From an uncultured Bacteroidota bacterium (GTDB lineage: Bacteria > Bacteroidota > Bacteroidia > JABEUT01): a stretch of 64,000 nt of DNA. The notes under the pieces were generated by a model. That model was not told where the DNA came from and did no database searches. It saw only the letters and a list, made by a program, of their open reading frames with translations. The DNA lies in assembly GCA_903863935.1 (NCBI GenBank), contig CAIPDV010000042.1, positions 68,869-132,868 of the forward strand, given 5' to 3'. Positions 4,695 through 59,260 of this stretch are shown one piece after another (the stretch's first letter is position 1; every line of letters begins with the position of its first letter). The position numbers and the translations under genes were made by a program.

Positions 4695-4705
4695 TTTTGT
4701 TGGGG

Positions 4706-5269: not shown

Positions 5270-5293
5270 ATGGCTTTAATTGGGGTTTAAGGT

Positions 5294-6097: not shown

Positions 6098-6121
6098 GTT
6101 TGCAAAAATAACAATTAAAAA

Positions 6122-38978: not shown

Positions 38979-40418
38979 TTATTGCCTGACAAACTTACCC
39001 TGTGCTAGTTGCCTGCCATCCTTAGATACTATCATATATAGGTACATGCCTTTCGGTTGATTTGAAAGGTCAATTTGTGTGTTGTTCTTAAATTCTCCGT
39101 TATAGATCCTTTCTCCTGTCATGTTATACACTCGTACTTGATTTATAGCTTCAAAATTCTCGCCCGAAATTGTAATAATACCACTGATGGATGGGTTAGG
39201 AGCAACTCTGGCCGTAGGTAAATTTATAGAAAATGAACAATGATTTTCAACCACTATCAGGTCGGCTGTAGGATAAGCACCATCAACACCACTAAAATCA
39301 TAAAGCTTCACAAAATTTCCGGTATGAATATCATATGAAATCAATGTACCCAGGCCATTTGCTCCGCCTGAATCAATAGGAGATATTAAAATTCCTGAAC
39401 GCGGTATTTGTACATAACCTGTTGCATAAGGATTCTCCCCAAACGGAACTCCCGGAGAACTAAAATCAATTAAAATACTGTCCTTGCCCGTATTTAAATT
39501 ATAGCTGTATAAAAGTCCGTTATTGTTCGTTCCACCCATTTGGGCAATACCATATATAAGGCCATTAGTAGCTTGAAGAAGCGCGCTTGCGTCAGAACTT
39601 GGATACATCCCATTTTTCCCTGAAAAACTAAATACCACACTATACGTTCTGCTTACAAGATCATAGGAATATAGAGCACCCCAATTACTGTCGCCACCCA
39701 AATATGTTGTACCGTAAATCAATCCGTTATTAGCCTGCATTAACCCACGTGGTTGCTTACCTGCTGCTCCATTAAAATTGACTAATACGCTATCCTTCCC
39801 GGTATTGATATTGTAATAAAAAATAGTTCCATTTCCATAGGTTCCACCTAAGGCTGTATGCCCCACTAACAACCCATTTGTGGCTTCAATAAAGTGACCG
39901 GTTGGCTTTGCTCCGTTCGAATCATTAAAGCTGAATAATATGGTTTGAGTTTTGGTTGAAAGATCATAACTATAACATATTCCCTTTCCCGCCGATCCGC
40001 CTGCAGAGGTTAATCCATAAATAAGCCCGTTACTTGCCTGAAATACCCCACCCAGCGGGGTTGCACCATTGGGTCCGCCAAAGTTGATCAATACTGTATC
40101 CTTATTTGTTTTTGGGTTCAGGCAGAACAGTACTCCTAAATTATAGGTTCCACCCAACGAAGTCTGGCTATACAAATTCCCATCGTTAGCCAATATCATA
40201 TATCCACGCGGGGTAGATCCATTAGTATCATTAAAATTGAGCATGACGGATTGCCCTCCTGACGGGTATGAATATTTGTACACACATCCTTTATTGTAAG
40301 CTCCTCCAAATTCGGTTACTCCATAAAGAGTAAAAGATTGCGCCCTGCCTGAATGGTTCAGAAATAATGCAAGAAACAATGCAGCAAGGGATGGCTTAAA
40401 TTTGGATTTAATTTTCAT
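38979..40418 (-). CDS. Secreted repeat protein ('choice-of-anchor'/GloVer-type tandem repeats) with a T9SS type-A C-terminal sorting domain
   Basis: Signal peptide. About seven tandem repeats of around 45 aa (xNGxxPxGxLxQAxNGLIYGxTxxGGxxxxGxxxxYxL). C-terminal VRVYNMTGERIYNGEF...GMYLYMIVSKDGRQLAQGKFV. Confidence 0.6.
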   Translation of the reverse strand: MKIKSKFKPSLAALFLALFLNHSGRAQSFTLYGVTEFGGAYNKGCVYKYSYPSGGQSVMLNFNDTNGSTPRGYMILANDGNLYSQTSLGGTYNLGVLFCLNPKTNKDTVLINFGGPNGATPLGGVFQASNGLIYGLTSAGGSAGKGICYSYDLSTKTQTILFSFNDSNGAKPTGHFIEATNGLLVGHTALGGTYGNGTIFYYNINTGKDSVLVNFNGAAGKQPRGLMQANNGLIYGTTYLGGDSNWGALYSYDLVSRTYSVVFSFSGKNGMYPSSDASALLQATNGLIYGIAQMGGTNNNGLLYSYNLNTGKDSILIDFSSPGVPFGENPYATGYVQIPRSGILISPIDSGGANGLGTLISYDIHTGNFVKLYDFSGVDGAYPTADLIVVENHCSFSINLPTARVAPNPSISGIITISGENFEAINQVRVYNMTGERIYNGEFKNNTQIDLSNQPKGMYLYMIVSKDGRQLAQGKFVRQ

Positions 40419-40601: not shown

Positions 40602-41738
40602 TCAGACTTTTGTTTTTACGACTTCAAACCTGTCCTTCATTCTCAGGAATGGTTTTTCAAAGAATTCGTAGGAAAGAATTGATATAATAATTGTAAACAT
40701 CAGGGTGGATAAGTAGAAAACCAAATTCATTTGCCATCCACCTAAGCCACGCCCAAATAATCTTTCTGTAAATGCAAGGCAAAATATCCGCAGGATAGCA
40801 CTGTACAAATACAATCCATAGGATATCTTACCGAGGTAATTGGTCCATTTAAAATCAAGTTTTATAACTGAATTGGGATTTGCCGCAAGGTTTATAATGA
40901 TGAAACAAAAAAATAGTGAATAGAATTCAAAATAAATAAATGGCACCCGGATATTAAAAACTAGCAAGAGTAAAGTAACTATATAGACACCCCATTGCAA
41001 ATCCTTTCGAAAAAGGGTCTTTAAAATCTTATCCTTTTCTGCAACCACTAAATAAGCACCTATTCCACCAATGGCCATACAACTCAGACGATAAAATGAA
41101 ATGATCTTTTGAAAATGCCTCAACCAGGGTGACAGATGCAAGACACGACAAAAAAATCCATACCCGTTACGAATCAGCAACACGGAAATTATAACTAATA
41201 CAAAAACCTGAACATATTTTTTGGTTCTTCTTAAAAGAAAAGGTTCCATAAAATAAAACACCTCCTCTACCCTTACAGACCATGTTGCGCCAATAGCCCT
41301 TAATGTTATTCCGATGGGAGGAATAAATAAAAGGCAGAGGAAAAAGTCAATATTTTTATACGGAGAATCAACTCCCAAATCATCAATATTCATTTTTTCA
41401 CCCAGGTAAGGAAGTATGAAAAAACCGATTATGATCACTAAGTAATAGAGCGGCCAAATCCTTAATGCTCTTCGCATCAAATACTTTTTAATGTTGATGT
41501 CCCCAGTATCCATTTTCTCTTTCAATAATAAATAGCCAATGAGAAAACCACTTAAAACAAAAAACAGGGATACATCCAAACCACCAATTGGTAAATAGGA
41601 TTTTACCCATAAATGCGGCTCCTTTCCATGAAGCACTTTCAGCTCTTCGTTATGCAGAATAATAAGAATTAATGAACCAACCAAACGGAGTCCGTCGAGA
41701 TTTGGGAAGTGTACTTTATCCTTTACAACTCCATCCAT
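40602..41738 (-). CDS. Acyltransferase family 3 (OatA/OafA-like) membrane O-acyltransferase, copy a
   Basis: N-terminal FPNLDGLRLVGSLILIILH motif and about 10 TM helices. It is a paralog of 51723..52910. Confidence 0.75.
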   Translation of the reverse strand: MDGVVKDKVHFPNLDGLRLVGSLILIILHNEELKVLHGKEPHLWVKSYLPIGGLDVSLFFVLSGFLIGYLLLKEKMDTGDINIKKYLMRRALRIWPLYYLVIIIGFFILPYLGEKMNIDDLGVDSPYKNIDFFLCLLFIPPIGITLRAIGATWSVRVEEVFYFMEPFLLRRTKKYVQVFVLVIISVLLIRNGYGFFCRVLHLSPWLRHFQKIISFYRLSCMAIGGIGAYLVVAEKDKILKTLFRKDLQWGVYIVTLLLLVFNIRVPFIYFEFYSLFFCFIIINLAANPNSVIKLDFKWTNYLGKISYGLYLYSAILRIFCLAFTERLFGRGLGGWQMNLVFYLSTLMFTIIISILSYEFFEKPFLRMKDRFEVVKTKV

Positions 41739-41739
41739 C

Positions 41740-42495
41740 TTAACCCTTGAAAAGATTATAAATTGGCTTGCCTATAATAACAATCATCATAACAAAGCCA
41801 AAAAGAAGGGTTTTCATAAAAACAGGCATCTTGTTAATTATAGTGGTCTTATTATAGATGTAGGAAACGTGTCGGGCAAGTATGGATGCACAAATCAAAG
41901 TCTTTTTATTCATAAATTCCGGCCGGATAACATCCATAATAATTATAATACGTCTTTTGTCTGTATTGTTCCATGCTGAATGCTTGTAGGCATCGTTAAA
42001 TATCAGACATTTCCCATTTTCCCAACTTTGTGATTCGCCATTTACCTTAAATCCGCATTCTGGTAAAACCCCTGGAATTTCAATACCGATATGGCAACGC
42101 ATAATTCCATTTGTATCACCTTCGTGCTCTCCTATTTTTGAATTTGCACTTAGCCTGCTTATAGTTACCGAGACAAGCCCCGGAATTTGTTTTAGTAGCT
42201 TATCCATTTTGGGACATTTCTTATCAAACTCATTTGAAATTTTAAGTCCCCAGAAAAGTGATGTAATCGCACTCCAGCTTTTTGCCGTATCTAATCCGCC
42301 GTAAAAAGTTGCAGTTGAAACAAATTTATCGTCTTTTTCTTTAATAAAGTTGCTGATCTCCTCCTGCCAGGCAGGCCAGTTGTCTTCCAAAGCCATAGCC
42401 CACGGGAAATCCTTCACCTTAAAATACCAGGGCTCATTTCCCGGGTAAGGTCGCCTGCTTGAACCATACCACAATTGTTTCTTTCCGACTTCCAT
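41740..42495 (-). CDS. Aspartyl/asparaginyl beta-hydroxylase-family (LpxO/OlsC-like) Fe(II)/2OG dioxygenase with a C-terminal TM anchor
   Basis: Similar to PF05118-type sequences (WYFKVKDFPWAMALEDNWP...HEGDTNGIMRCHIGIEIPG). Hydrophobic C-terminus. Confidence 0.6.
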   Translation of the reverse strand: MEVGKKQLWYGSSRRPYPGNEPWYFKVKDFPWAMALEDNWPAWQEEISNFIKEKDDKFVSTATFYGGLDTAKSWSAITSLFWGLKISNEFDKKCPKMDKLLKQIPGLVSVTISRLSANSKIGEHEGDTNGIMRCHIGIEIPGVLPECGFKVNGESQSWENGKCLIFNDAYKHSAWNNTDKRRIIIIMDVIRPEFMNKKTLICASILARHVSYIYNKTTIINKMPVFMKTLLFGFVMMIVIIGKPIYNLFKG

Positions 42496-42594
42496 TACTT
42501 GACCTATTATTGCACAAATATAGAGTAATATGGTGCTCTTTAACCGGGCATTACTCCTTAATTGAATTTATATGCTTTAGTATCTTTGTGACGG

Positions 42595-43638
42595 ATGAAT
42601 GCACAAGTTTCATTATATACAACGGAAGAAATTGAAAGGATAAAAAACACGCCGATGTTTTTTGTTTTGGGTAAAGAACGTTCCGGGACAACATTATTGC
42701 AACTGATGCTTAATGCTCATGCAAACATTATTGCTCCGCCTGAATCAAGGTTTATTATTCTTCTCTATTTCAGATATGGAAAAACAAAAAAATGGACGGA
42801 ACAAATAATTTCTTCCCTGTGCGATAATCTTTTTGAAGAGGGCCTATTTCGTGATTTTTGGGGCATTGATAAACAGCAATTGAAAAATCAATTAATTACT
42901 GCAAAGGATATGCTTACCTTCTCTTTACTTTGCAAAATAATTTTCCGGATTTCAGCCCCCGGCAAAAATGAAGTACGGATATTTTTCGATAAAAATCCTT
43001 TATACTATTACTTCCTGCCGGAACTAAATAAAATTTTTCCGGAAGCGAAATATCTCCACTTGGTTCGCGATTATAGGGCAAATTTGGTAAGCCACCGCAA
43101 AGTATTTACTGTAAAAAAAGGTACGGATATTGCATTCCGCTGGATGAAAGTAAATATGCTGGTGGAAGAGGCAAAGAAAATGGCTCCACAAAATTATTTT
43201 ACGCTCACCTATGAGTCGCTTGTGGGTAGTCCTGTCGATACTCTAAGTAAAGTCTGCCTGTTTCTGAATCTACCCTTTGATGAAAACATGGTTCAGAACC
43301 ATCAGTCAGGCATGTATTCAAAATTCAACAGCAATAAAAAAGAAGGATTCTTAAAAGTTCATCAAAATGTATTTAATCCAATAAATCCGTCTCTCATAAG
43401 CGAATGGAAAGAAAAAATTCCAAAAGAGGAATTAATGAACGTGGAAGCAGCAGTTGGTAACTTTGCAAAGTCGATGTATGGTTATGAATTAATATTTCCT
43501 GAAAAATCAGGGAATAATCCTAACGGCTTTTTTATGATGAACCTAAAATATAAAGCCATTAAATCCCTTTATCGGAAAGCATTAGCCAACTTATGGCTTT
43601 ATCGTAATATCAAGAAATATGTATGGGGAGGTTTTTAA
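42595..43638 (+). CDS. PAPS-dependent sulfotransferase (Sulfotransfer_3-like), ST1
   Basis: 5'-PSB motif GKERSGTTLL and 3'-PB motif VRDYRANL. Confidence 0.8.
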   Translation: MNAQVSLYTTEEIERIKNTPMFFVLGKERSGTTLLQLMLNAHANIIAPPESRFIILLYFRYGKTKKWTEQIISSLCDNLFEEGLFRDFWGIDKQQLKNQLITAKDMLTFSLLCKIIFRISAPGKNEVRIFFDKNPLYYYFLPELNKIFPEAKYLHLVRDYRANLVSHRKVFTVKKGTDIAFRWMKVNMLVEEAKKMAPQNYFTLTYESLVGSPVDTLSKVCLFLNLPFDENMVQNHQSGMYSKFNSNKKEGFLKVHQNVFNPINPSLISEWKEKIPKEELMNVEAAVGNFAKSMYGYELIFPEKSGNNPNGFFMMNLKYKAIKSLYRKALANLWLYRNIKKYVWGGF

Positions 43639-43648
43639 TCTCTTTCAA

Positions 43649-44701
43649 TTAATATGCTTCACCAATCCTTCCTTTTTTAAATTTTTTGGAGTACCAAAGG
43701 TTAAAGCTAAGGTTAGAAAATCTAAATCGGGTGAATCCAATCCACAAATTAAATACTATCATTTTCCATATTATTAATATGACTGGAATTCCAGTACTTC
43801 TTTTTGAAACATTCGTATTATAACCATACTTGGTATTTGCAAACTCTCCTGTGATATATTCAACAATTATTTTCTCTTCTGCCTTCAACTCACCTTCCCA
43901 TTTATTTATACTTTCAATATTTACAGGTTTCGTAAGACTTTTATGGATTTTTTCCAGGTATTTTTTCTCGAATTTCCGGTTATGAGACATGTCAGGAATT
44001 TTATGGGTCAGCATCTCCTCATTGAATGGCAGATTTAAAAAACCGCATAAATCTTTCAAAGTACCTTCGGTATCTTCCACCAATTTCTCATACTTAATTG
44101 TAAAATATTTTGATGGATTATTTTTTTTATCACTCTCTATAATTGAATTCTGAATAACCCATCCATTAGCATTAAAAATATAATTTTTCATACTAAAGGT
44201 CTTCATTGTACTATTTATAACGGCTCTGGGATCACGAACTATATGAATAAATTTCCCATTGGGATAAAGCACCCTAAGCTTATCAATAAATAAAATATAA
44301 AGCGGGTTTTTATCTGAAATAAGCTTCACATCTCCTTTATCTCGTTTCATTTGGTAATAGACCATCTTACATATCAATGAAAAGTCCGCAACTTCCCGGG
44401 CCGCCATCAGGTTTTTCAAAAGCAGGTCCCAATTTATATTCCAGTATTCAACAAACTGCGGATCCATTTTTAAGGAGTCGACAAAATCAATAATATCACT
44501 TTCCGTCCATTTTTTAATGGATGAAAATCGTGGATAAAGAATTGCAATAAATTTTGTTTCGGGTGGTGCAACAATATTGGGATGCGCATCAAGGAGTGAT
44601 TGTAATAGGGTTGTTCCTGAGCGACCTGTGCCTAACACAAATACAACTGGAATTTCCTTCAATTTATCTATTTCATCCGCTTTAATTACTTTCTCCATCA
44701 T
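43649..44701 (-). CDS. PAPS-dependent sulfotransferase, ST2
   Basis: GTGRSGTTLL and VRDPRAVI. Confidence 0.8.
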   Translation of the reverse strand: MMEKVIKADEIDKLKEIPVVFVLGTGRSGTTLLQSLLDAHPNIVAPPETKFIAILYPRFSSIKKWTESDIIDFVDSLKMDPQFVEYWNINWDLLLKNLMAAREVADFSLICKMVYYQMKRDKGDVKLISDKNPLYILFIDKLRVLYPNGKFIHIVRDPRAVINSTMKTFSMKNYIFNANGWVIQNSIIESDKKNNPSKYFTIKYEKLVEDTEGTLKDLCGFLNLPFNEEMLTHKIPDMSHNRKFEKKYLEKIHKSLTKPVNIESINKWEGELKAEEKIIVEYITGEFANTKYGYNTNVSKRSTGIPVILIIWKMIVFNLWIGFTRFRFSNLSFNLWYSKKFKKGRIGEAY

Positions 44702-44744
44702 AACAAAGCTAAGCTTTTCCTGACTTTATGAATTCCAAATGAGC

Positions 44745-45782
44745 TCAAAGGCCATAACCTTTCAAATAATTTTTCCGGTAATACGAATTGAACTTATACC
44801 AATTATACCTTGCTTTTGTAAATCCCTCCCAAAGAGCGTAAACAACTTTCGTTTTAAATAATCTATATGCAGAAATATGCTTATTGGGTTTTGATTCACC
44901 CAGTAAATAGCCATATTTTTCTTTGGCATATTTGCCTGTAATATTTTCAGTAACTGCCAAATCATATTCATCAAGTTCAGTCTTCCATTTGCCAATATTA
45001 GAGGCATTAATTGGCTTTAAAAGGCTCTCATGAATTTCTTTATATCGTTCAAATATTGCCTCTTCCTTCAAATTTTCAACATTTTCTGCGAACTTATTTT
45101 TCATTATTGAATTATCATATGGCACATTCAGAAATTCGCATAATAATTTAAAAGTATCGTTAGGATTGGTCACCATCTTCTCGTAAATAACCGTAATAAA
45201 TTGTTGCGGAAATTGCTCTTTCACCTTTTCAATTGCTTGATTCAGACCAACCCACTGCCGGGAAATAAAAAACGTATTTTTCTTTTTCAATCTTTTAATA
45301 TGTCCGTTTATAACATCCCTGGGATCCCTAATTATATGTATGAATCTGGCTTCAGGAAATATCCCGAGAAGCTTATTTGCAAAATAAGAATTCCGAGGAT
45401 CTTTATCCGAGATAAGCAATATGTTTTCTTTATTATTTTTCTTTTGAAGGAAAACAATTTTGCAAGCAAGTTGATAATTTAAACCTTCCCTTAATCTTAT
45501 TAGCTCTTCAAAGAGATTTGCTTTATTCAAAAGCCAGATTTTTGATATTCGCGGAAGACTGAAAAGATCTTCAACAAAATCGTGAACAGTTTTTTCAGTC
45601 CACCTTTTTATCCCTCCAAACTTCGGATACAAAAACAGAATAAAATCGCTTTCCGGCGGGCCCACAATCTGCGGATGTGAATCAAGCATTTCCTGCATTA
45701 AGGTAGTACCGGAACGGCTGCTTCCCAAAATAAAAAGCATTGGTAACTTTTCAATTTCACTGCTCGTAATCCCTTCATTCAT
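44745..45782 (-). CDS. PAPS-dependent sulfotransferase, ST3
   Basis: GSSRSGTTLM and IRDPRDVI. A 4-bp overlap with the upstream GT2 gene implies translational coupling. Confidence 0.8.
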   Translation of the reverse strand: MNEGITSSEIEKLPMLFILGSSRSGTTLMQEMLDSHPQIVGPPESDFILFLYPKFGGIKRWTEKTVHDFVEDLFSLPRISKIWLLNKANLFEELIRLREGLNYQLACKIVFLQKKNNKENILLISDKDPRNSYFANKLLGIFPEARFIHIIRDPRDVINGHIKRLKKKNTFFISRQWVGLNQAIEKVKEQFPQQFITVIYEKMVTNPNDTFKLLCEFLNVPYDNSIMKNKFAENVENLKEEAIFERYKEIHESLLKPINASNIGKWKTELDEYDLAVTENITGKYAKEKYGYLLGESKPNKHISAYRLFKTKVVYALWEGFTKARYNWYKFNSYYRKNYLKGYGL

Positions 45783-46894
45783 CGTGATAAATATTTAATT
45801 AAAAAATAAACCCCGATTGAAATAAATAGATAGGCAAAGAATTTTATAGCTGCCCAAAATCGTTGATAGTTAATATTTTTTCCATTGCAAAAGAAATCAA
45901 ATCGCTTACTAATCCCTTGAAAAATCGTAAATTTTTGGAATTGCATTTTTAATCTTCCATAATCTATTGCTGCTCTTACCCATATAACCTCATGCGTGAA
46001 TTTGCTTTTGCCTAACCCTCCACTCTTCTGCAACCTCATAAACTCCACAATAAATTCTCCTGCAAGCACTCCGATAGAAACACAAAGAATTGGAAGGAAT
46101 GAGTGGATGCAAAAACATACAATTAAGGTAAGTGGGAGGCCAACAAGGAAACACTCCACCATATTGGGAAATGTATAAAACGAATATTGAGGAAATTTTT
46201 GCATTAAAATTGCTGCACCTCCGTTAACCCTTATAAACCTTGAATAATCTCTCTTCCCTTTATTCCACCAATCGTGATAAACAGGAGTATTGGTAAGGCA
46301 TTGCAATTCCTGCTTCGTATTATTATAAATCCGGAGAAAAAAATCAGCTTCCTCACAGGCTCCCCGTTTATCGTATATTTCCAGAAAACGGACATCGCCT
46401 ATTGCGGAGCGCTTTACAACCACATTAGCTGTAGCAGCACATTTTGAATGCTCACGCAAACGGGCCACAGAAAATCCTGCCAGAATACTACCGGCACGCA
46501 AACCTGCGGTGAAACTATTTATGGATTCGGGAAATATAACTTCTCCTAAAAACCCAACCTCTCCTGGCCTTTCAATGATGGCCTTTAAATAGTTTATCAG
46601 TAAATCTTTAGGTGGCTTTACATCATCATCCAAAAACAAAATCCAATCGGCCGTTGATTTATCAATACCGATATTCCTTGTTTTGCTTACTCCATAATTA
46701 GCTTCATTCGCAATTAGGATAACTTTATCATTGTCGACCTGTGTTGCAAAATCTGCCGGTATTTTGCCCTGCGGGTTATCAGAAATTATCAGAAACCTGA
46801 CTTTCGCTTCACTGGGAATATCCATGCTTACTATGGCAGTGAGATATTCACTTTGCAAACGGAAAGAAGGAACTATAACATCCAATGAAACCAT
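45779..46894 (-). CDS. Glycosyltransferase family 2 with a C-terminal membrane region, GT2-a
   Basis: N-terminal VSLDVIVPSFR and the DxD-type motif ILFLDDDV. Two to three C-terminal TM helices. Confidence 0.7.
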   Translation of the reverse strand: MVSLDVIVPSFRLQSEYLTAIVSMDIPSEAKVRFLIISDNPQGKIPADFATQVDNDKVILIANEANYGVSKTRNIGIDKSTADWILFLDDDVKPPKDLLINYLKAIIERPGEVGFLGEVIFPESINSFTAGLRAGSILAGFSVARLREHSKCAATANVVVKRSAIGDVRFLEIYDKRGACEEADFFLRIYNNTKQELQCLTNTPVYHDWWNKGKRDYSRFIRVNGGAAILMQKFPQYSFYTFPNMVECFLVGLPLTLIVCFCIHSFLPILCVSIGVLAGEFIVEFMRLQKSGGLGKSKFTHEVIWVRAAIDYGRLKMQFQKFTIFQGISKRFDFFCNGKNINYQRFWAAIKFFAYLFISIGVYFLIKYLSR

Positions 46895-46964
46895 ACTTAA
46901 CTATTCCCCAAAAGTAAATAAAATTAAGGAATAAATCTATTTGTGAAACCCACCTGAACTCCCG

Positions 46965-47900
46965 CTATTTAAGTAGGGGCGAATTGTAATTTTTCAAGAT
47001 CTCATCATTCAGTATTTTACTGAATTTGATCGCGCCATCCTTATTAAGATGTGTTACTTCCCTGAAGTCTTCGTCTGTAAATCTTGAATCGGTATGGTAA
47101 TCATACTTCCTGCAACTATAAATTGAACACAACCCATTTATTGCACTATCAATGGTTTTCATCCTGTTCTTATCTAAATATTTATTATAAAAATGGTTGT
47201 AAGGCGCAATAAAAAACACCGGTTCAATATTGCGTTTCTTCAATTCCCCGATAAATATTTTCAGATCGCTAATGTTATCTGCAAAATTTTCCTGCTTCAT
47301 TTCCTTTTCATGAGCTTTGGCAAGATTATACCCGGCCGAATCATTCAAGGGGCCTTTCTTTCCGCCAATAGCCCAACCGTTTTCCTGATAGCCTCTTTCA
47401 AGATCAGTACTAAATCCACTTAGGGCAAAATTCCAGGCTTTTTCATTTCCATACGCCAATATTTTACTGTATAAATGGATATCATACCACTTGATTGAAG
47501 GATACCGAATACCCCATTCCCTGGCATAAAAATAATCGCGAAATGGTTCATCGCATGTATGTACCTGGAACCAAAAACTTGGGTAAGAAATATCGATGAG
47601 TACCACTTTTAGCGAGGTCATTTTATCCAGATACTTCAAGGTTATTCTGGTATCATAATAAATTGACTGCTGAATATTTGCAACGTTATATCCCTTCATT
47701 GAAAAACAATCAGGGTCAACCCCTCTTAGCGAGTGGGAAGGGCCAAGCACAAGCACTTCTATCTTTGGAGCCAATGACTCAAGATGTTCCCTTTTCATTG
47801 AATAACTATCGGGCATGCGACTCAATCCATACTCCCATGCAGCAATAAATCCACTGATGGGGATGAGAAAAATAAATAATCGAATTACAAATTTTTTCAT
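46965..47900 (-). CDS. MBOAT-partner protein (DltD/AlgX/AlgJ-like SGNH-type, DUF1574-like)
   Basis: N-terminal anchor, 311 aa. Immediately downstream of the MBOAT gene and abutting it (47900/47901). Candidate catalytic residues VLVLGPSHS ... D..H (TDEDFREVTHLN). Confidence 0.45.
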   Translation of the reverse strand: MKKFVIRLFIFLIPISGFIAAWEYGLSRMPDSYSMKREHLESLAPKIEVLVLGPSHSLRGVDPDCFSMKGYNVANIQQSIYYDTRITLKYLDKMTSLKVVLIDISYPSFWFQVHTCDEPFRDYFYAREWGIRYPSIKWYDIHLYSKILAYGNEKAWNFALSGFSTDLERGYQENGWAIGGKKGPLNDSAGYNLAKAHEKEMKQENFADNISDLKIFIGELKKRNIEPVFFIAPYNHFYNKYLDKNRMKTIDSAINGLCSIYSCRKYDYHTDSRFTDEDFREVTHLNKDGAIKFSKILNDEILKNYNSPLLK

Positions 47901-49340
47901 CTAAAACTGGAAATAAATAAATTGCCTGTGCTCAAAAATTCCATATACCCCTATTACAAATATGGCTGCATAATAAACTGCCCACCTGATATATACCGGT
48001 TGCTTAAGAAACCTGTTTAACAACGAGTGATTTCTATAGAAATATTGTAATAACTCAAGAACAATTATTAAACCGAATGAAAGAACCAAATAGGAGTTTT
48101 TAACTCCCATAAACTGCAAGTGATGAAAATGCAACAGGTCGTTAAAACTAGTAAACATGTGCCCTGCAATGTAAAACGCATTTGAAATATTATTGGAAGC
48201 GAAAAATATGGTGGCAAAACCAACCAGTGTAAACGTACCAACAATAGAAAATATGCTATATTTCCGGATGCCTATGGCCGTTCGAAATGCCTTCCATGGT
48301 TTACGTGCCAGGGTACCTATCATTAAATAAACGCCGTTTATCACTCCCCACATAATGAAATTCCAACTGGCACCGTGCCAAAGCCCGACAAGAAAAAATA
48401 TTACAAACACATTAAAAAGGTGGCCGGGCACGCCTCTGTACTTTCTGCTCATTGGCATGAACAGGTAATCCCTGAACCAGGTGGATAATGATATATGCCA
48501 TCGTGTCCAAAATTCCGCGATTGTTTTTGACATGAATGGGTAGTTGAAATTCTGCATAAGTTTAATACCCATTACTCTTGCAGCCCCCCGGGCAATATCA
48601 GTATATCCGGAAAAATCGCAATAAATTTTATAGTTGCAAAATAAGGTAGCAATAACCAGGCTTATTCCATTAAAGTGATGAGGATCAGTATAAACATTAT
48701 CTATTAATATAGCCAACCGGTCAGCAATAACAACCTTTTTAAAGAGCCCCCAAGCCATCAAGCGCAACCCACTTGCAACATTCGCATAATCGAATTCGTG
48801 GTTCTGTTTTAATTGCGGAAGCAAATTCTGAGGTCTTTCAATTGGCCCGGCAACTAATTGCGGATAGAACATTACATACAGTGAGTATATCCCGAAGTGT
48901 CGCTCCGCCTTTTGGTTGCCACGATAAACCTCGATGGTATAACTCATGGCCTGAAACGTGTGGAATGAAAGCCCTATTGGAAGCAATATAGCCAGACCGG
49001 GGATTGGGTTAGCGACGTGAAAATTACCCAGAAGAAAAGTAAGGTTATCGTTCAAAAAATTATAATACTTGAAAACCGCCAGCACGCCTATGTTTGCAAC
49101 AAGGCTACAAGTCAAATAGAGTTTTCTTCGTTTGCCCTGGGCACCTTCAATAAAAATCCCGGCGAAATAATCAATAACAATGGTAAAGCCCAGTATCAGT
49201 ATATATATTGGCACAAAGGCCATATAGAAATAACAACTGGCCGCAAGCAGAAGCACCCATCTCCATTGGTGTGTTAAACTAAAATAGAGCACCGTTACAA
49301 TTACAAAAAAATAGAGAAACTGCAGGGAGTTAAAGAGCAT
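47901..49340 (-). CDS. MBOAT-family membrane O-acyltransferase (AlgI/DltB-like)
   Basis: Signature WTRWHISLSTWFRDYLF and the conserved His in GLWHGASWNF. 479 aa, polytopic. Confidence 0.8.
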   Translation of the reverse strand: MLFNSLQFLYFFVIVTVLYFSLTHQWRWVLLLAASCYFYMAFVPIYILILGFTIVIDYFAGIFIEGAQGKRRKLYLTCSLVANIGVLAVFKYYNFLNDNLTFLLGNFHVANPIPGLAILLPIGLSFHTFQAMSYTIEVYRGNQKAERHFGIYSLYVMFYPQLVAGPIERPQNLLPQLKQNHEFDYANVASGLRLMAWGLFKKVVIADRLAILIDNVYTDPHHFNGISLVIATLFCNYKIYCDFSGYTDIARGAARVMGIKLMQNFNYPFMSKTIAEFWTRWHISLSTWFRDYLFMPMSRKYRGVPGHLFNVFVIFFLVGLWHGASWNFIMWGVINGVYLMIGTLARKPWKAFRTAIGIRKYSIFSIVGTFTLVGFATIFFASNNISNAFYIAGHMFTSFNDLLHFHHLQFMGVKNSYLVLSFGLIIVLELLQYFYRNHSLLNRFLKQPVYIRWAVYYAAIFVIGVYGIFEHRQFIYFQF

Positions 49341-49550
49341 ACGTAATTATCGTTGCAATTGGGATTGATGCAAAATTATATTTTTATCTTTGCGCAATGC
49401 AGATTTGGATTGAAAAAGAAAATCGGCCTGCTTTTCGGGTTATTTAACAATCCTTTCTATTAAAACTGCTGAATGGCTTATTGCTACAAAATGCTTATAG
49501 AGTTGTCCAAGCAAAAAACAGTTATAAAGATTAATACTTTTCAAAAATAA

Positions 49551-50624
49551 GTGAGCTCCGACCACCCGATAAACGCCAAGGAAATTAATAATATCCCAAT
49601 GTTATTTATTTTAGGCAATGCGCGCTCTGGCACTACACTTCTACAGGTATTGCTTGATGCACATCCGGAAATAGTCGGAAGCCCTGAATCGAAATTTGCA
49701 GTCTTATTTTACCCAAGATATAAGCATATAAAAAAGTGGAAAGAATCTGATATCATTGATTTTGTAGAGCATTTATATAAGGAACCATTGTTTGTTCAGT
49801 TATGGCATTTGGATAAGGAAAAACTAAAAAAAGAGTTATTGAAAGTGAAGGAAAATGCCACCTATTCTTTGCTTTGCAAAATGGTGTACTATCAAATGCG
49901 AAATGGGAAAAATAATCCGTTGTATCTTTCTGATAAGAACCCTGAATACACTCTTTATATTGATACAATTTTAAAAATGTTTCCGGAGGCAAAGTTTATA
50001 CATATCATTCGGGAACCGAGGGATACGATTTACAGCCAGATGATTTCCTTCAAAGAAAAGAATTCCAAATTCAAAGCCTTTAAATGGTTAGCATTTAATA
50101 CAATTGTAGAGGGAAAAAAGAAAAAAGATCCGGAGCGATATTTTACACTGCTTTATGAAAACCTGGTGAATGATACGGAAGCAACCATGAAAGATTTATC
50201 ATCCTTTTTAAACATTCCATTTTCAGCCTCAATGGCTCAAAACAAAAGCCCTGAGTGGTTAAATGCTCATCTGGAAAAAAATGTGCTCACCGAAAATGCA
50301 AAACCATTTTATGCAAATCTTCTGAAACCAATTAACCCTTCTAAAATCGGGAATTGGAAAAACCACATGGATGTTTATGATCAGACATTAGCGGAGATAA
50401 TTACCGGAGATTTTGCTCACAAAATGTATGGGTATGAAATTGACAGCAACCATAAAAACAAACCGGTAAAAATTTCTGCATACTCGCTGTTTAAAGGCAA
50501 TTGCCTTTACTTTTTCTGGCAAATGTTTAAGCAGGTAAAGGTCAAATCTACCCGCCTGAATTTGTTATATGCCAGGTTCCGAATCATGCTCAATCCGAAT
50601 GTTCGAATTTCGAAGTTTTTCTGA
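49551..50624 (+). CDS. PAPS-dependent sulfotransferase, ST4
   Basis: GNARSGTTLL and IREPRDTI. Confidence 0.8.
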   Translation: MSSDHPINAKEINNIPMLFILGNARSGTTLLQVLLDAHPEIVGSPESKFAVLFYPRYKHIKKWKESDIIDFVEHLYKEPLFVQLWHLDKEKLKKELLKVKENATYSLLCKMVYYQMRNGKNNPLYLSDKNPEYTLYIDTILKMFPEAKFIHIIREPRDTIYSQMISFKEKNSKFKAFKWLAFNTIVEGKKKKDPERYFTLLYENLVNDTEATMKDLSSFLNIPFSASMAQNKSPEWLNAHLEKNVLTENAKPFYANLLKPINPSKIGNWKNHMDVYDQTLAEIITGDFAHKMYGYEIDSNHKNKPVKISAYSLFKGNCLYFFWQMFKQVKVKSTRLNLLYARFRIMLNPNVRISKFF

Positions 50625-50664
50625 TAAAGTTCCTTCCGATATCGAATAATAAGTTCTGAATTAT

Positions 50665-51726
50665 ATGAATAATCCCGGGTTAAGAGAAATAGAAGAGATA
50701 AGGAAGATACCCATGCTTCTAATATTCGGGAAAGGTCGTTCTGGTACTACATTATTACAATCTGTGCTTAATGCTCATCCGAGCGTTGTAGCTCCACCCG
50801 AATCTAAATTTATGATGGTGCTTTATCCCAAGTTCAGAAGCATAAAAAAATGGAGCGAAAAGGATGCATTAAGTTTTGTTGAAGAAGTATTCAATTTTCC
50901 GACTTTCAACAACCGCTGGCACATGGATAAAGAAGTTGTAACTTCCTATATTATGGCTGCAAGGGAACAACTTGATTATGCACTGGCCTGCAAAATTATC
51001 TATTATATATGGGGAGAAAAAAGAACCGTACTTTATTTATCAGATAAAAATCCGGATTATTATCTATTCACTAAAAAACTATTCAAACTTTATCCCGAAG
51101 TAAAATTCATACATCTGGTTAGAGAACCAAGAGATAATGCGCTGAGTACATTTAAGGCATTCGAGAGCAAAAGCCCATTCTACGCAGCATTTAAATGGGT
51201 TGCAGTAAATTCCATTATGGATAAGCTGGTAAAGAAAATGCCCGGGAAAGGAATTACAGTTTTTTATGAAAACATGGTGGAGAATCCCGAGGCCTTTTTT
51301 AAAAATATCTGTGGCTTTCTGGATATACCTTATGTGCCTGAAATGCTAAACCGCGATATGCCTGAAAAGTTCTACAAAGACAAAACGGTAATGGAAGCAA
51401 TTTTAAAAAAGCAGAATAAACTTTTCACCCCTATCACTCCATCTTCAGTTGGGAAATGGAAAACCGATTTAAAGCCATTCGCCATTGCAGTTACTGAGAA
51501 AATTACGGGGAAATATGCATTAGAAAACTATAAATACACAGTAGGTTCTGAAGAAGGAAAAAATGTTTCAGTAAGCTATTTTAAGATTCTAAAGGGAAGC
51601 TGTATTTATTACGGATGGCAAGCATTTACTCGCTTCCGCTATACATCCTTCAGATTAAATAAAACATATTCATGGTTGAGGCGAAAACTAAGCGGGGGCA
51701 AGCTATTGCCCTGGCAATATTACTAA
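50665..51726 (+). CDS. PAPS-dependent sulfotransferase, ST5
   Basis: GKGRSGTTLL and VREPRDNAL. Confidence 0.8.
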   Translation: MNNPGLREIEEIRKIPMLLIFGKGRSGTTLLQSVLNAHPSVVAPPESKFMMVLYPKFRSIKKWSEKDALSFVEEVFNFPTFNNRWHMDKEVVTSYIMAAREQLDYALACKIIYYIWGEKRTVLYLSDKNPDYYLFTKKLFKLYPEVKFIHLVREPRDNALSTFKAFESKSPFYAAFKWVAVNSIMDKLVKKMPGKGITVFYENMVENPEAFFKNICGFLDIPYVPEMLNRDMPEKFYKDKTVMEAILKKQNKLFTPITPSSVGKWKTDLKPFAIAVTEKITGKYALENYKYTVGSEEGKNVSVSYFKILKGSCIYYGWQAFTRFRYTSFRLNKTYSWLRRKLSGGKLLPWQYY

Positions 51727-52910
51727 GCAGTTTTTGCAACTCTGAATCGCTTGCCGAAAGAAAGAAGCCTTTTCTCGAATAATTGATAAGATACTGCCGC
51801 TATGCCAATTGTTGAGAGTATTGTAGTCAAATAGTAAATCAAATTCATTTGCCACCCGGCTATTTGCCTGCCAGCTATTTTTTCAATTAATTCCATAGCC
51901 AAAATCCTCATGATTGGGCTATACATATAGAGCCCATACGATATTTTCCCCAGATAATTCATCCATGGGAAATCAAGTTTAATAATGGATTTAGGATTAG
52001 CAGCAAGGTTAACAATAATGCACATAAAGAGAACAGAATACCATTCGTAATTCATACTGGGAAAGCTTTCCCGGCCAATGGCTCGTAACCCAATTCTTGA
52101 AAACAACAGACCAAGAGTTAAAAGGTATATCCCAAACTGTACATCTCTCCTGAATAAAAAAGAAAGCACTTTTTTATTTTCCGTAATTACCAAATACGCG
52201 CCTATTCCTCCAATAGCCATGCTGCTTATGCGGTATTGCACAGACATGCTTCGCAAGAACTTGAAAATATTTTCACTGGCCAACGAACCATTAAATAATG
52301 GCTCACATAGGAGCACTGCATTGCGGAGCAATATAATTCCCGCAATAATCAGTATGAACAATTTTAAATAATTCTTTGCCCTTTTTAAAAATAAAGGCCA
52401 GCACAAATAAAATACTTCTTCTACCCCGATTGACCATATAGGGCCAATCGTTTGCGGAAGTCCGGTAGCAGTCCTCACGATTGGGCTTAAGAACAAAATA
52501 CAACCGATAAAATACAGCCAAAAATGTTTATAAATATGAAATGAATACGCGGTACTGAAATAGGCATCTAAATGTGGCAACACAAAAAAACCTAAAATGA
52601 CAATTAAAAAGTAAAGGGGCCAAATACGTAATGTTCTGCGTAAATAAAATGCCTTAAGGTCAATAGTATTTGTTTTCTTCTTTTCCTGAAGCAACAGGAA
52701 TGTTATCAGAAAACCACTGAGCACAAAGAATAATGTCACGTCCATTTCTCCCGTAGGATGGAAATAGCGGATCCATGGAATCACCTCCCGGCCATGCTTG
52801 AATTTAATGTCCTCAATATGAAGAATGATAATAATGAGCGAGCCTACGAACCTCAATCCGTCCAGATTTGGGAAGTATTTCCGTTGATTTGGACTGAGAT
52901 CTTTTTCCAC
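51723..52910 (-). CDS. Acyltransferase family 3 membrane O-acyltransferase, copy b
   Basis: YFPNLDGLRFVGSLIIIILH. Paralog of 40602..41738. Confidence 0.75.
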   Translation of the reverse strand: MEKDLSPNQRKYFPNLDGLRFVGSLIIIILHIEDIKFKHGREVIPWIRYFHPTGEMDVTLFFVLSGFLITFLLLQEKKKTNTIDLKAFYLRRTLRIWPLYFLIVILGFFVLPHLDAYFSTAYSFHIYKHFWLYFIGCILFLSPIVRTATGLPQTIGPIWSIGVEEVFYLCWPLFLKRAKNYLKLFILIIAGIILLRNAVLLCEPLFNGSLASENIFKFLRSMSVQYRISSMAIGGIGAYLVITENKKVLSFLFRRDVQFGIYLLTLGLLFSRIGLRAIGRESFPSMNYEWYSVLFMCIIVNLAANPKSIIKLDFPWMNYLGKISYGLYMYSPIMRILAMELIEKIAGRQIAGWQMNLIYYLTTILSTIGIAAVSYQLFEKRLLSFGKRFRVAKTA

Positions 52911-52922
52911 TAAAATTAAGTC

Positions 52923-54014
52923 TTAAGCCGCGTTTGTTTTCAGGTTTTTTAACCTTTCTTTTTCTGCTTTCTCTTTCAGATAATCGTCTAGCTTTCCTGA
53001 TTCCGCAAGGTGTACAAGATTATTGTCCTTCTTAACCAATTTGTAGCTTTTCCAGATGGGAGGATGGAGGGCAAATAAATCTAAAAAGGTATATAACGGA
53101 GATATTTTGAAAGAGTAGAACGGTGCTACCCAACGGTACCCAACACCAATGGAGTCGGAACCATTTTTTACGGTATGCCAGTAAAATGGAGGGTTCCAGA
53201 ACACATCTCCCGGTTTAAGGCTAACGGATATCCCGTCAATATATTTATATAACTCATTCGGGGGACTGAAATCAGTATTGAAAGGATCGAAGGGCATATT
53301 ATTTTTGGCCCTGAAAGGCGCATTACGATAAATATTTCGTACCGGATCCGGGTCAATTATCGGAGTGTAATAATGGGAATATAAAACCCAGTTCTTTTCT
53401 CCGTAGGTCTGCACAAATAAATTTGGCGCATTAGCATTATGCAGATAAGAAACTGTTCCCTTCCCACCAATAAAAAGCTGAAAAGAATCAAAAAAAGTAA
53501 ACCCCTTTCTCCTCTCAAGAAGCCAGCTATAATCAAAGTCTTTAATGTGTTCCGGATGATGATCGAGCAATGGATAAAAACGATAGTACTTGCCACCTCC
53601 GCTCCGAATGTTATCAAGCACTTCGCCAAGGGTGGTGGTTTCGTAATTCTTCATATCCGATTGGTCAGTCACCATCATAATTTCATCTGAACCATGCAAC
53701 TCTTTAAAATAGTCGAGAGACCATTTCTTTACGCAATCCCATTCTTTTGCAGCACCCTCCATAACAACAGGAATGCCCTTCTTCACGTAGTGATTAAAAA
53801 ATTCTTCCTTACTTAGATTAGTTCTTCTATCAATTGGAAATATCTTCCCTTCCCCACTCTTTTTGAGGGTTTCAAGCAGATTACGGTAGAATTTTTTACG
53901 GCGTTTCCCAAGAAGTTTAAATACCCTTGCCCTACCAACAAATTGATCAAGGATTTGATATATCCCATATTCAATTCGTTGACCTGCTTTTATATTTCTT
54001 CTGAAATCGCCCAT
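52923..54014 (-). CDS. Cupin-like/JmjC-domain protein (putative Fe/2OG hydroxylase), copy a
   Basis: 363 aa. Cupin_8/JmjC-like architecture (…VVMEGAAKEWDCVKKW… FYWHTVKN…). It is a tandem paralog of 54054..55127, with about 65-70% identity by eye. Confidence 0.5.
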   Translation of the reverse strand: MGDFRRNIKAGQRIEYGIYQILDQFVGRARVFKLLGKRRKKFYRNLLETLKKSGEGKIFPIDRRTNLSKEEFFNHYVKKGIPVVMEGAAKEWDCVKKWSLDYFKELHGSDEIMMVTDQSDMKNYETTTLGEVLDNIRSGGGKYYRFYPLLDHHPEHIKDFDYSWLLERRKGFTFFDSFQLFIGGKGTVSYLHNANAPNLFVQTYGEKNWVLYSHYYTPIIDPDPVRNIYRNAPFRAKNNMPFDPFNTDFSPPNELYKYIDGISVSLKPGDVFWNPPFYWHTVKNGSDSIGVGYRWVAPFYSFKISPLYTFLDLFALHPPIWKSYKLVKKDNNLVHLAESGKLDDYLKEKAEKERLKNLKTNAA

Positions 54015-54053
54015 TAATACCTAATTAATACTGACAAATATAAAATAATTCCA

Positions 54054-55127: not shown

Positions 55128-55248
55128 TTGAACAGCATTTATAAATACAAATGTAAAATAAAAACATAATTTATCACGTTAGTAGCCAAAAGCCTACCTT
55201 TTAAGCTGTGTATGGAAAATATTAACTTTGTGAAAATTACGTAAACAA

Positions 55249-56250: not shown

Positions 56251-56261
56251 TAAGAAGATAT

Positions 56262-56504
56262 ATGGGGATAGAAGATCTACTAAAACAATTACAAGCAGAA
56301 TTTGAAGATATTCCTGCAGGAACTTTAAAACCCGAAACTAAAATTTCTGATATTGAAGGCTGGGGTTCCATGCACGCATTGATAGTTATTGCGCTTGCCG
56401 ATACCGAATATGGCGTTACGATAAAAGGTGATGAACTCCGCAAAGTACAATCGGTTCAGGAATTATATGATTTGATAATTGAAAAACAAAAAAATCCGGA
56501 GTAA
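56262..56504 (+). CDS. Acyl carrier protein (about 80 aa)
   Basis: A helical protein of about 80 aa with a putative phosphopantetheine Ser in DIEGWGSMHAL. The ATG at 56262 avoids overlapping the FabH gene. The ORF-track start at 56223 is rejected. Confidence 0.6.
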   Translation: MGIEDLLKQLQAEFEDIPAGTLKPETKISDIEGWGSMHALIVIALADTEYGVTIKGDELRKVQSVQELYDLIIEKQKNPE

Positions 56505-56510
56505 GTAAGT

Positions 56511-57566: not shown

Positions 57567-57568
57567 GA

Positions 57569-58318: not shown

Positions 58319-58329
58319 AAACTGTTGAA

Positions 58330-59259: not shown

Positions 59260-59260
59260 C

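Follow-up and report, generated by a model that had tools for sequence, protein, structure and literature searches.

In animal and algal biology sulfated glycans have a central place, while bacteria are known chiefly for degrading them; only few bacterial sulfotransferases with glycan substrates have been described, and their characterisation is poor. That such enzymes are encoded in bacterial glycan clusters is already known for Nod factors, rhizobial lipopolysaccharide (LPS), sulfolipid-1 (SL-1), synechan and a Vibrio capsular polysaccharide (CPS): rhizobial NodH, NoeE and LpsS, mycobacterial Stf0 (SL-1) and the cyanobacterial synechan xss genes provide in-cluster, 3'-phosphoadenosine-5'-phosphosulfate (PAPS)-dependent sulfation of glycans or glycolipids. 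The CPS/O-antigen cluster of Vibrio sp. KMM 8419 has a sulfotransferase gene adjoining that of the Wzx flippase (PMC11641403), and in Halobacterium salinarum the separate sulfotransferases Agl30 and Agl31, one of them membrane-associated, modify different sugars of one N-linked tetrasaccharide (PMC11980604). Here we analyse a stretch of 64,000 nucleotides from an uncultured Bacteroidota bacterium (contig CAIPDV010000042.1, positions 68,869 to 132,868; hereafter the window), which carries five paralogous sulfotransferase genes, ST1 to ST5, within a locus that spans about 19.3 kb (40602-59938). We give an even chance to the overall model in which this locus would make an envelope glycoconjugate, with the five PAPS-dependent O-sulfotransferases as its tailoring enzymes. 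Agl30 and Agl31 are a precedent for one sulfotransferase per position but are archaeal, two in number and dependent on a dolichol carrier; the bacterial clusters named above have one to three sulfotransferases each, against five here, and none of them joins sulfotransferases to an acyl module, dioxygenases and an ArnC-like enzyme.

The closest described proteins were the tyrosylprotein sulfotransferases TPST1/2 (PDB 5wri, 3ap1), best matched in both sequence and fold, and the sulfotransferase domains of CurM (CurM-ST, 4gbm) and of an olefin synthase (OLS-ST, 4gox). All five window proteins matched Sulfotransfer_3 (PF13469), the Pfam family of the TPSTs, across the whole profile (positions 1-216; E 3.5e-28 to 3.7e-36; 100-126 bits against a cut-off of 27), far beyond chance, and they also exceeded the cut-off of Sulfotransfer_1 (PF00685) with 36-56 bits, well under their PF13469 scores. 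When a profile of the five proteins was compared with the PDB, human and tick TPST1/2 came out at about 6e-27 and the equally close CurM-ST and OLS-ST at 2e-25 and 4e-21 (TM-score about 0.65, target-normalised), while the cytosolic sulfotransferases (SULTs) were reached only at E 4e-5 or worse. The AlphaFold2 (AF2) model of ST4 (pLDDT 91.8, pTM 0.91) gave the same ranking in Foldseek, with TPST1/2, OLS-ST and CurM-ST on top, and all 50 matches listed were sulfotransferases or close fold relatives such as retinol dehydratase. Motifs, Pfam profile and fold therefore agree that ST1-ST5 are genuine PAPS-type sulfotransferases, as the original prediction had it, and by sequence and model they belong to the TPST/CurM-ST branch (Sulfotransfer_3). 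The label "cytosolic-type" that they had been given must be dropped, and the equivalog level of NCBIfam NoeE was not reached either (32-55 bits against a cut-off of 500, chiefly over the P-loop region). The family is large, with 4,235 clusters at 50% identity (E <= 1e-30).

The residues expected of this branch are conserved. The G, R, S and G of the 5'-phosphosulfate-binding (5'-PSB) motif were invariant in a 51-sequence family alignment, as was the first Arg of the 3'-phosphate-binding (3'-PB) motif, which aligns with VRDGRASVHS of TPST1; a Ser downstream of this Arg is present in four of the five paralogs and replaced by Gly in ST3. In HMMER and family alignments, furthermore, the second Glu of the TPST1 GEET motif is matched by the Glu of PPE[ST] and the Lys of the TPST NKDP motif by the Lys of DKNP, both invariant in the family; we take these two TPST1 residues to be the general base E100 and the catalytic K159, respectively. 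TPST Ser285/286 had no evident equivalent in the alignment of the window proteins. Absence of a catalytic Lys/His had been named as the observation that would speak against the assignment; the Lys is present, but the His was mis-specified, because the TPST/CurM branch uses a Glu base and an invariant Glu occupies that position here too. Since the catalytic and PAPS-binding residues are invariant in the 51-sequence alignment, the five enzymes are very probably active.

The likeness to the described relatives has its limits. The TPSTs, type-II membrane proteins of the Golgi, modify Tyr in proteins and share about 16-22% identity with the window proteins, whereas the latter have no N-terminal anchor, carry an extra C-terminal tail and are encoded among glycan and acyl genes. 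CurM-ST and OLS-ST sulfate the hydroxyl of a short acyl chain produced by ketosynthase and ketoreductase (KR) chemistry, but they do so inside polyketide synthase megasynthases in which a thioesterase then expels the sulfate; the window instead encodes five free-standing proteins, and we found no thioesterase or hydrolase domain among the genes from 40602 to 62694. All five proteins share the tail, which is about 50 residues long, enriched in aromatic and basic side chains and modelled by AF2 as a helical hairpin; it is most hydrophobic in ST2 (maximum Kyte-Doolittle hydropathy 2.07).

The five open reading frames (ORFs) are intact, encode proteins of 345-357 aa and lie in the order originally described: ST1 (42595-43638, plus strand, 347 aa; PF13469 E 3.5e-28; motifs GKERSGTTLL and VRDYR) is followed by ST2 (43649-44701, minus strand, 350 aa; E 9.5e-34) and ST3 (44745-45782, minus strand, 345 aa; E 6.6e-32), by the genes for a family-2 glycosyltransferase (GT2a), a DltD-like protein and an MBOAT-family acyltransferase, and then by ST4 (49551-50624, plus strand, 357 aa from a GTG start; E 3.7e-36) and ST5 (50665-51726, plus strand, 353 aa; E 9.4e-29). 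Both predicted motifs were found in 5/5 proteins in the alignment of the five, the 5'-PSB as G-x-x-RSGTT-L-[LM] and the 3'-PB motif [VI]R[DE][PY]R as VRDYR, VRDPR, IRDPR, IREPR and VREPR, and the pairwise identities of 36-43% (BLASTP) fall within the 30-45% estimated by eye. For ST4 the gene caller picked a later ATG, giving 341 aa (P0001), but we consider the long form likelier because its GTG at 49551 immediately follows a stop codon and the extra residues align with positions E12/I13/P20, invariant in the paralogs.

Five copies in one place is an extreme state. Among 81 loci examined with 10 kb on each side, one sulfotransferase copy was present in 44, two in 30, three in six and five in a single one (L085), a relative of the window, so that the rarity claimed for such clusters stands, apart from the wording "cytosolic-type". 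The claim that the paralogs are old and not recent copies was confirmed as well, each having a 1:1 ortholog in L085 at 65-77% identity: ST1 at 77%, ST2 at 67%, ST3 at 65% with the same overlap with GT2a, ST4 at 68% in a moved position and ST5 at 73%. At sequence level this 1:1 retention fits non-redundant roles. An ST1 ortholog was also found in L003 (64%) and ST4 orthologs in L007, L010 and L004. In a neighbour-joining (NJ) tree, built without support values, the five window genes fell in one clade with the sulfotransferases of L003-L011, L071 and L085, and orthologs of ST1 and ST4 occurred in several close relatives while those of ST2, ST3 and ST5 occurred in L085 only, a distribution from which the expansion appears lineage-specific but old. 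Domain fusions also occur: L087 encodes a 631-aa fusion of two sulfotransferase domains (8012-9907), and in a representative library two such domains stand in tandem in P0290 (698 aa) and four with the RSGTT motif in P0291 (1298 aa), which suggests that several sulfotransferases act together. A poly-sulfated product was a reasonable prediction.

To describe the genomic surroundings of the family, we examined 80 loci with relatives of the sulfotransferases, obtained from a scan of one genome per species and nearly all from Bacteroidota, calling the ORFs in each locus with 10-kb flanks, labelling them by BLAST to the window proteins and clustering the remainder. A ketoacyl-ACP synthase III (KASIII) gene together with an ArnC-like glycosyltransferase gene (GT2b) was found within 10 kb in 37 of the 80 loci, mostly as a whole block of ketoacyl-ACP synthase (KAS), acyl carrier protein (ACP), second KAS, short-chain dehydrogenase/reductase (SDR), GT2b and GNAT genes. 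A Wzx-like flippase gene (Pfam Polysacc_synt/_3) lay within the same distance in 36/80, often adjacent to or overlapping a sulfotransferase gene, as in L057, and a multi-pass membrane protein with C-terminal tetratricopeptide repeats (TPRs) and a weak TMTC/PMT match was encoded in 22/80; at least one of these three elements accompanied the sulfotransferases in 61 of the 80 loci. Less frequent within 10 kb were hydroxylases of the AspH or Cupin_8 type (19/80), DegT aminotransferases (11/80) and adenosine-5'-phosphosulfate (APS) kinase (about 5/80), and neither GT2a nor the DltD-like gene nor MBOAT was present in any of the 80. The "GT2/MBOAT core" around which the five genes had been described is consequently not a core of the system; from these neighbour counts, the conserved partner is a carrier-lipid sugar pathway with a flippase. 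In one Bacteroidales group the Wzx-like and sulfotransferase genes form an overlapping two-gene unit amid housekeeping genes, and for many family members a Wzx-like gene is the only partner, an acyl module being absent within 10 kb. The locus of the cultured Aequorivita viscosa CGMCC 1.11023 (L032) contains DegT, two sulfotransferase genes, GNAT, GT2b, SDR, two KAS genes and the gene for a TPR protein, and Aequorivita sp. H23M31 is another cultured carrier.

Some related loci have additional content. In five of them from Bacteroidales metagenome-assembled genomes (MAGs; L044, L045, L037, L051 and L059) genes for B12-binding radical-SAM enzymes (HpnJ/HpnR-like) and GNATs recur in pairs between the sulfotransferase, Wzx-like, GT2b, SDR and KAS genes, in what looks like a far more elaborate tailoring variant of the system. 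In two others from a Bacteroidetes MAG, a SET-domain gene lies directly 5' of the first sulfotransferase gene (L083 9531-9947 and L084 1991-2407).

GT2a (45779-46894, minus strand) is a family-2 glycosyltransferase embedded in the membrane, in which a GT-A domain precedes interface and transmembrane helices at the C-terminus. Its model was confident (pLDDT 95.4) and closest to membrane-embedded synthases: the pairs of fold-comparison values were 20.9 and 295 for Chlorella virus hyaluronan synthase, 19.7 and 288 for Xenopus HAS1 and 19.0 and 278 for BcsA, followed by 14.6 and 222 for DPMS, 14.4 and 221 for ArnC and 13.7 and 210 for GtrB. The family consensus contains DDD, GGGED and RFxRW. Since GT2a has only about three C-terminal membrane helices, a full channel is unlikely, and on the basis of the model we regard it as a transferase that is bound to the membrane and uses a membrane-anchored acceptor, to which it would add one or several sugars.

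The relation between GT2a and the sulfotransferases had been proposed from the coupling of ST3 to GT2a. The 4-bp ATGA overlap is real (minus strand ...CGATGAATG..., ATGA at 45782-45779, with the ST3 start ATG at 45782-45780 and the GT2a stop TGA at 45781-45779), but it is conserved only in L085, the two genes being divergent in L087 and L094. Firmer ground for the link came from a search with GT2a, in which close orthologs (46% identity or more), where the contig was long enough, led to clusters with five sulfotransferase domains, namely the window, L085, L087 and L094, with the exception of L098, which has GT2a and no sulfotransferases; loci without GT2a have at most three. This supports, at sequence level, the view that the additional sulfotransferases are connected with the product of GT2a. 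L087 encodes three sulfotransferases and the two-domain fusion together with Wzx-like, Cupin_8, AspH-type and acyltransferase-3 (AT3) genes, and L094 encodes five sulfotransferases, the KAS module and a 451-aa ORF where L087 has its Wzx-like gene, so that a Wzx-like gene lies amid the sulfotransferase genes in L087 and probably also in L094. The window and L085 have no Wzx-like gene beside the locus; both have MBOAT and the DltD-like gene. More distant GT2a homologs (below about 41% identity) were found in LPS-core or other glycan contexts with no sulfotransferases. A further homolog, P0136 (54% identical; L086 10001-11119), is indexed in 36 blocks of the assembly collection and is surrounded in L086 by genes of conjugation and of mobile elements (TraG/TrwB-type coupling proteins, a serine recombinase and ArdC), with no sulfotransferases nearby.

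The conserved block downstream of the sulfotransferases (55249-59938) can be compared with a described system. In Flavobacterium psychrophilum, wfpC (KAS), wfpD (ACP), wfpE (KAS) and wfpF (KR), with an acyltransferase, are predicted to place an N-3,5-dihydroxyhexanoyl group on UDP-Qui2NAc4N; the authors assigned wfpC-G to the synthesis and transfer of this group, which is chemically established in the O-polysaccharide (PMC6519341). The window block has the same layout of KAS, ACP, a different KAS, KR and N-acyltransferase, in the same phylum, although the likeness is one of architecture only, the Wfp acyltransferase is PglD-like whereas that of the window is a PseH-like GNAT, and the Wfp module sits in a Wzy-type O-antigen cluster without sulfotransferases or hydroxylases. 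In the window, all on the plus strand, KAS3a (55249-56250) is a FabH-type KASIII with ACP_syn_III and C-terminal domains, scores above cut-off with NCBIfam PRK09352 (259.5 bits against 249) and shows readable Cys, His and Asn motifs. Between it and KAS3b (56511-57566; ACP_syn_III), a second and distinct KASIII with 34% identity to KAS3a, lies a gene for a small carrier protein, a probable ACP (56262-56504; PP-binding 17.6 bits, E 0.0047, full profile), at whose position L083 and L085 also have an unannotated gene of 78-80 aa. KAS3b is very conserved, with 57-95% identity among the 120 matches listed, which include Aequorivita and Mesonia; F. psychrophilum was not among these 120, all of which are closer relatives. 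A FabG-like ketoreductase of the SDR family follows (57569-58318; adh_short_C2 E 4.7e-44; NCBIfam FabG-type about 110-114 bits).

The last two genes of the block, also on the plus strand, would connect it to carrier-lipid chemistry. GT2b (58330-59259; Glycos_transf_2 E 2.3e-32) is a putative ArnC/GtrB-type polyprenyl-phosphate glycosyltransferase whose ORF opens at a GTG at 58261, with a 58-nt overlap with SDR, the ATG at 58330 (MAEQPKK...) being the likelier start. It aligned end to end with NCBIfam ArnC (residues 3-307 against 3-311 of 316) at 188.7 bits, with an equivalog cut-off of 529, and scored 136 bits with PgfS, so that its placement in the ArnC/GtrB-type family is plausible from sequence. 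The GNAT N-acyltransferase (59261-59938; Acetyltransf_3/4), at the right edge of the conserved locus, is PseH-like (60.8 bits against a cut-off of 93) and stands beside GT2b in about 36 related loci. The described systems nearest to this arrangement are Arn (ArnC, ArnE-F, ArnT) and Gtr (GtrB, GtrA, GtrC): GT2b aligns with ArnC end to end, the related loci add a flippase and a GT-C-like multi-pass protein, and N-acylation would precede carrier loading, as in Arn. They differ in that the flippase of the relatives is Wzx-like and not ArnE/F or GtrA, the TPR protein is a candidate GT-C by a weak TMTC/PMT match, and Arn and Gtr have no counterpart for sulfation or hydroxylation. In the window this three-component set is incomplete, since tblastn found neither the flippase nor the TPR candidate GT-C.

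Further tailoring genes surround the sulfotransferases in four compact transcription units that span the locus. The first, on the minus strand and divergent from ST1, comprises AT3a (40602-41738; Acyl_transf_3 E 6.8e-24), an integral-membrane acyltransferase-3 and predicted O-acyltransferase at the left edge, and an Fe/2-oxoglutarate hydroxylase of the Asp/Asn beta-hydroxylase family (41740-42495; Asp_Arg_Hydrox E 6.9e-36), which is OlsC/LpxO-like, with 113 bits for OlsC and 81 for LpxO, each under its cut-off. AT3a is 47% identical to AT3b, and its orthologs flank those of ST1 in L003-L005. The second unit (minus strand) runs from MBOAT through the DltD-like gene, GT2a and ST3 to ST2. MBOAT (47901-49340; E 2.8e-23) is a DltB/AlgI-like membrane O-acyltransferase (147 bits with NCBIfam DltB, cut-off 375), and the DltD-like protein (46965-47900; DltD E 8e-7, C-terminal part only), seen in the window and L085 only, is its probable extracytoplasmic partner. 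In the third unit ST4 and ST5 converge with AT3b (51723-52910; Acyl_transf_3 E 7.6e-25), Cup8a (52923-54014; Cupin_8 E 9.4e-22) and Cup8b (54054-55127; Cupin_8 E 8.7e-28), all three on the minus strand, the 3' ends of ST5 and AT3b overlapping by 4 bp. Cup8a and Cup8b are tandem paralogs (73% identical) of the JmjC/Cupin_8 type and predicted hydroxylases. The acyl block with GT2b and GNAT forms the fourth unit (plus strand), so that ST1-ST5 lie in three separate units.

Orthologs of KAS3b, SDR, GT2b and Cup8a retain 81-92% identity against 64-77% for the sulfotransferases; the 92% that Cup8a shares with its L003 and L085 orthologs is unusually strong for a tailoring enzyme. The same uncultured Bacteroidia population was found in several assemblies, and a strain-variant contig, Tb08BAJY (ENA ERZ1426822), has an identical ST3, an ST1 shortened to 327 aa and a left flank in which an NTP_transferase, a sugar epimerase/dehydratase, a sugar C-methyltransferase and a dTDP-sugar isomerase replace the hydroxylase and AT3a; these dTDP-sugar genes fit a glycan locus. 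Promoter-like and terminator-like sites were no commoner than in shuffled sequence. Housekeeping genes (ValRS, phosphoribosyltransferase) and a type IX secretion system (T9SS) cargo gene (38979-40418) lie to the left of the locus and an E1 dehydrogenase fusion (60022-62118) to the right. We left the T9SS gene and the E1 fusion out of the locus because they are not conserved beside it in relatives.

The assignment of the proteins to families, the intactness of the catalytic motifs, the paralogy and orthology and the gene neighbourhoods are direct observations, from which we infer every substrate and product of the following scheme. By analogy with F. psychrophilum wfpC-F, KAS3a, the carrier protein, KAS3b and the ketoreductase would assemble a short carrier-bound hydroxyacyl chain, of the 3,5-dihydroxyacyl type, which the PseH-like GNAT would transfer to the amino group of a nucleotide-activated amino sugar. 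The sugar would then be loaded onto undecaprenyl phosphate (Und-P) at the cytoplasmic face by GT2b, as its ArnC-like family suggests, further hydroxyls may be introduced by the OlsC/LpxO-like hydroxylase and the two Cupin_8 dioxygenases, and in this lineage GT2a would attach a second sugar. Each of the five sulfotransferases would sulfate a different hydroxyl of the sugars or of the acyl chain, presumably before the substrate leaves the cytoplasm, given that PAPS is a cytoplasmic donor. AT3a, AT3b and the MBOAT/DltD-like pair may add O-acyl groups, and a flippase and a GT-C enzyme, encoded beside the sulfotransferases in relatives and not in the window, would export the product and transfer it to an envelope acceptor. 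The fully developed form of this scheme is a persulfated glycoconjugate made by a "hydroxylate, then sulfate" logic, an Und-P-borne N-(polyhydroxyacyl) amino sugar with a second sugar and four to five sulfates added before export, and we put it forward tentatively, as possible and short of probable. Hydroxylation followed by sulfation has been proposed earlier for other bacterial operons, on proteins (PMC2938197).

The same genes allow other readings of the product. One that we regard as rather unlikely is a free sulfated membrane glycolipid, akin to sulfatide or SL-1, in which a lipid glycosylated by GT2a and/or GT2b would be sulfated on its head group and hydroxylated acyl chains and would remain in the membrane or outer membrane without transfer to a further acceptor. 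It would suit a membrane-embedded GT2a with its set of D, DxD, GED and RxxRW motifs, presumably common to processive synthases and to lipid glycosyltransferases such as glucosylceramide synthase, a hydroxylase nearest to OlsC and LpxO, enzymes that hydroxylate the acyl chains of lipids, the fatty-acid-type module with two AT3 genes and MBOAT, and the lack of a flippase or GT-C beside the locus in the window and L085. The Wzx-like flippases and TPR membrane proteins of the relatives, however, imply export and transfer of a lipid-linked sugar, GT2b aligns over its whole length with ArnC, a carrier-lipid loader, no OlsB/GlsB-type lipid N-acyltransferase is present, and the distant GT2a homologs belong to LPS-core or glycan contexts. 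Alternatively, the paralogs could be interchangeable or redundant enzymes that generate surface-antigen variants, each molecule receiving one or two sulfates and not five. The variable left flank and truncated ST1 of the variant contig, the distribution of the genes over three transcription units and the faster evolution of the sulfotransferases relative to the core, typical of surface-antigen loci, would all agree with this, yet five 1:1 orthologs are kept in L085, five domains occur again in L087 and L094, the two- and four-domain fusions argue for joint action, and no invertible-promoter-like repeats were seen: inverted repeats sought around the three divergent promoter regions reflected only coding-sequence paralogy, such as 45 nt at 82% between ST3 and ST5. 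We consider this explanation unlikely.

Two further explanations follow from the closest solved structures. Tyrosine sulfation of a secreted protein or peptide in the manner of TPST or RaxST, with the neighbouring dioxygenases hydroxylating the same polypeptide, is suggested by the TPST matches and by the many homologs labelled "protein-tyrosine sulfotransferase" by JGI, and JmjC/Cupin_8 and AspH-type enzymes classically modify proteins, as in the hydroxylation-then-sulfation proposal cited above; T9SS cargo genes moreover stand beside the locus (38979-40418) and beside about 10 related loci. We judge it very unlikely, with no precursor peptide, nonribosomal peptide synthetase (NRPS) or dedicated peptide exporter present, glycan-carrier enzymes and flippases as the strongest conserved neighbours, an indirect argument, no conserved T9SS gene at the same place in the closest relatives L003-L005, and CurM-ST and OLS-ST, which act on hydroxyacyl groups, equally close. 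Those same two domains, which sulfate 3-hydroxyacyl-ACP, raise the idea of a CurM-like transient activation, in which the beta-hydroxyl of a hydroxyacyl-carrier would be sulfated and the sulfate would later leave by elimination, decarboxylation or cyclisation, so that the end product would lack sulfate at that position; the KASIII/ACP/KR module, expected to yield 3-hydroxyacyl-ACP, is 3.5 kb away. Given that the locus has no thioesterase or hydrolase partner, that five paralogs far exceed the need of one activation step and that so many family members pair with a Wzx-like gene and lack an acyl module within 10 kb, this seems to us highly improbable.

The reading that we prefer, a multiply sulfated envelope glycoconjugate built on a lipid carrier and exported, also has several observations against it. 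In tblastn searches of the 64-kb window no APS kinase, Wzx-like flippase, TPR membrane protein, DegT or B12-radical-SAM gene was found, so that for export and for the supply of the PAPS donor the model depends on relatives or on unseen parts of the genome. The co-occurrence counts are descriptive and carry no statistical test, because the loci were gathered through sulfotransferase similarity and their neighbours labelled by BLAST, and across these loci the number of sulfotransferases does not follow the number of hydroxylases. The substrates given for GT2b, GNAT, MBOAT and the hydroxylase are guesses, since all of them score under equivalog cut-offs, and the score of the carrier protein is under the Pfam gathering threshold. 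The fold of GT2a is nearest to processive synthases and not to simple transferases, which fits less well with the addition of one sugar. Finally, the C-terminal tail of the sulfotransferases was considered as a membrane anchor, its helical hydrophobic moment (0.25-0.41) not exceeding that of the catalytic domain; its composition would fit, and membrane association through the tail is thus a weak inference.

Elsewhere in the window we noted several features apart from the locus. About 17 kb upstream, a GT87-family GT-C (22609-23841, plus strand), unrelated and the only GT-C candidate of the window, lies near an RmlD-like reductase gene (20903-21823, minus strand). A sulfur-handling run on the minus strand (4284-7144) contains two YeeE/YedE-like Sulf_transp ORFs that adjoin or overlap and may be parts of a single split gene, together with genes for a TauE/SafE sulfite exporter and a TsdA/SoxA-like dihaem cytochrome c; none of these is a PAPS-synthesis gene. 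Two huge T9SS cargo proteins of 1359 and 1233 aa (7357-11436 and 11497-15198, plus strand) have SprB repeats, NHL/teneurin-like propellers and CHU_C or Por_Secre_tail sorting domains, and the third T9SS protein, the one adjoining the locus (38979-40418), has a GG-rich propeller repeat. A 456-aa protein (15581-16951, minus strand) has a weak Swt1-like HEPN match (E 1.2e-5, just under the Pfam cut-off) and may, in its low-GC stretch (GC 0.35, 16-18 kb), be part of a defence or mobile insert. Near the left end, a 460-aa protein (1016-2398, plus strand) with a copper type II ascorbate-dependent monooxygenase C-terminal domain (PHM/DBH-like) is encoded next to an AhpC/TSA-like redoxin.

In full-text literature searches we found no description of this sulfotransferase family, of the conserved cluster or of a sulfated envelope glycan or lipid made by sulfotransferases in Bacteroidota, an absence that is no proof, and a 2025 review of Bacteroidota protein O-glycans does not have sulfate among the modifications listed. 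What is new here is the combination of TPST/CurM-branch sulfotransferases with an ArnC-like carrier pathway, a Wfp-like acyl module and dioxygenases, with up to five sulfotransferases in one locus. The family is large and, as far as our searches show, unstudied, and it is associated with a gene set conserved in Bacteroidota. If the overall model is correct, this gene set would be a new route to strongly anionic surface structures, which bear on resistance to phages and predators, metal binding, biofilm matrices and host mimicry, and it would supply regiospecific sulfotransferases for simple lipid-linked or N-acyl sugar acceptors, of possible use in the enzymatic synthesis of sulfated sugars. 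The persulfated product, if real, would give the Bacteroidota envelope a heparin-like charge density, represent the first sulfated glycoconjugate pathway of the phylum and provide the first carrier-lipid-bound substrates for this branch of sulfotransferases. The most highly sulfated product would best be sought in the five-copy clusters of the window, L085, L087 and L094.

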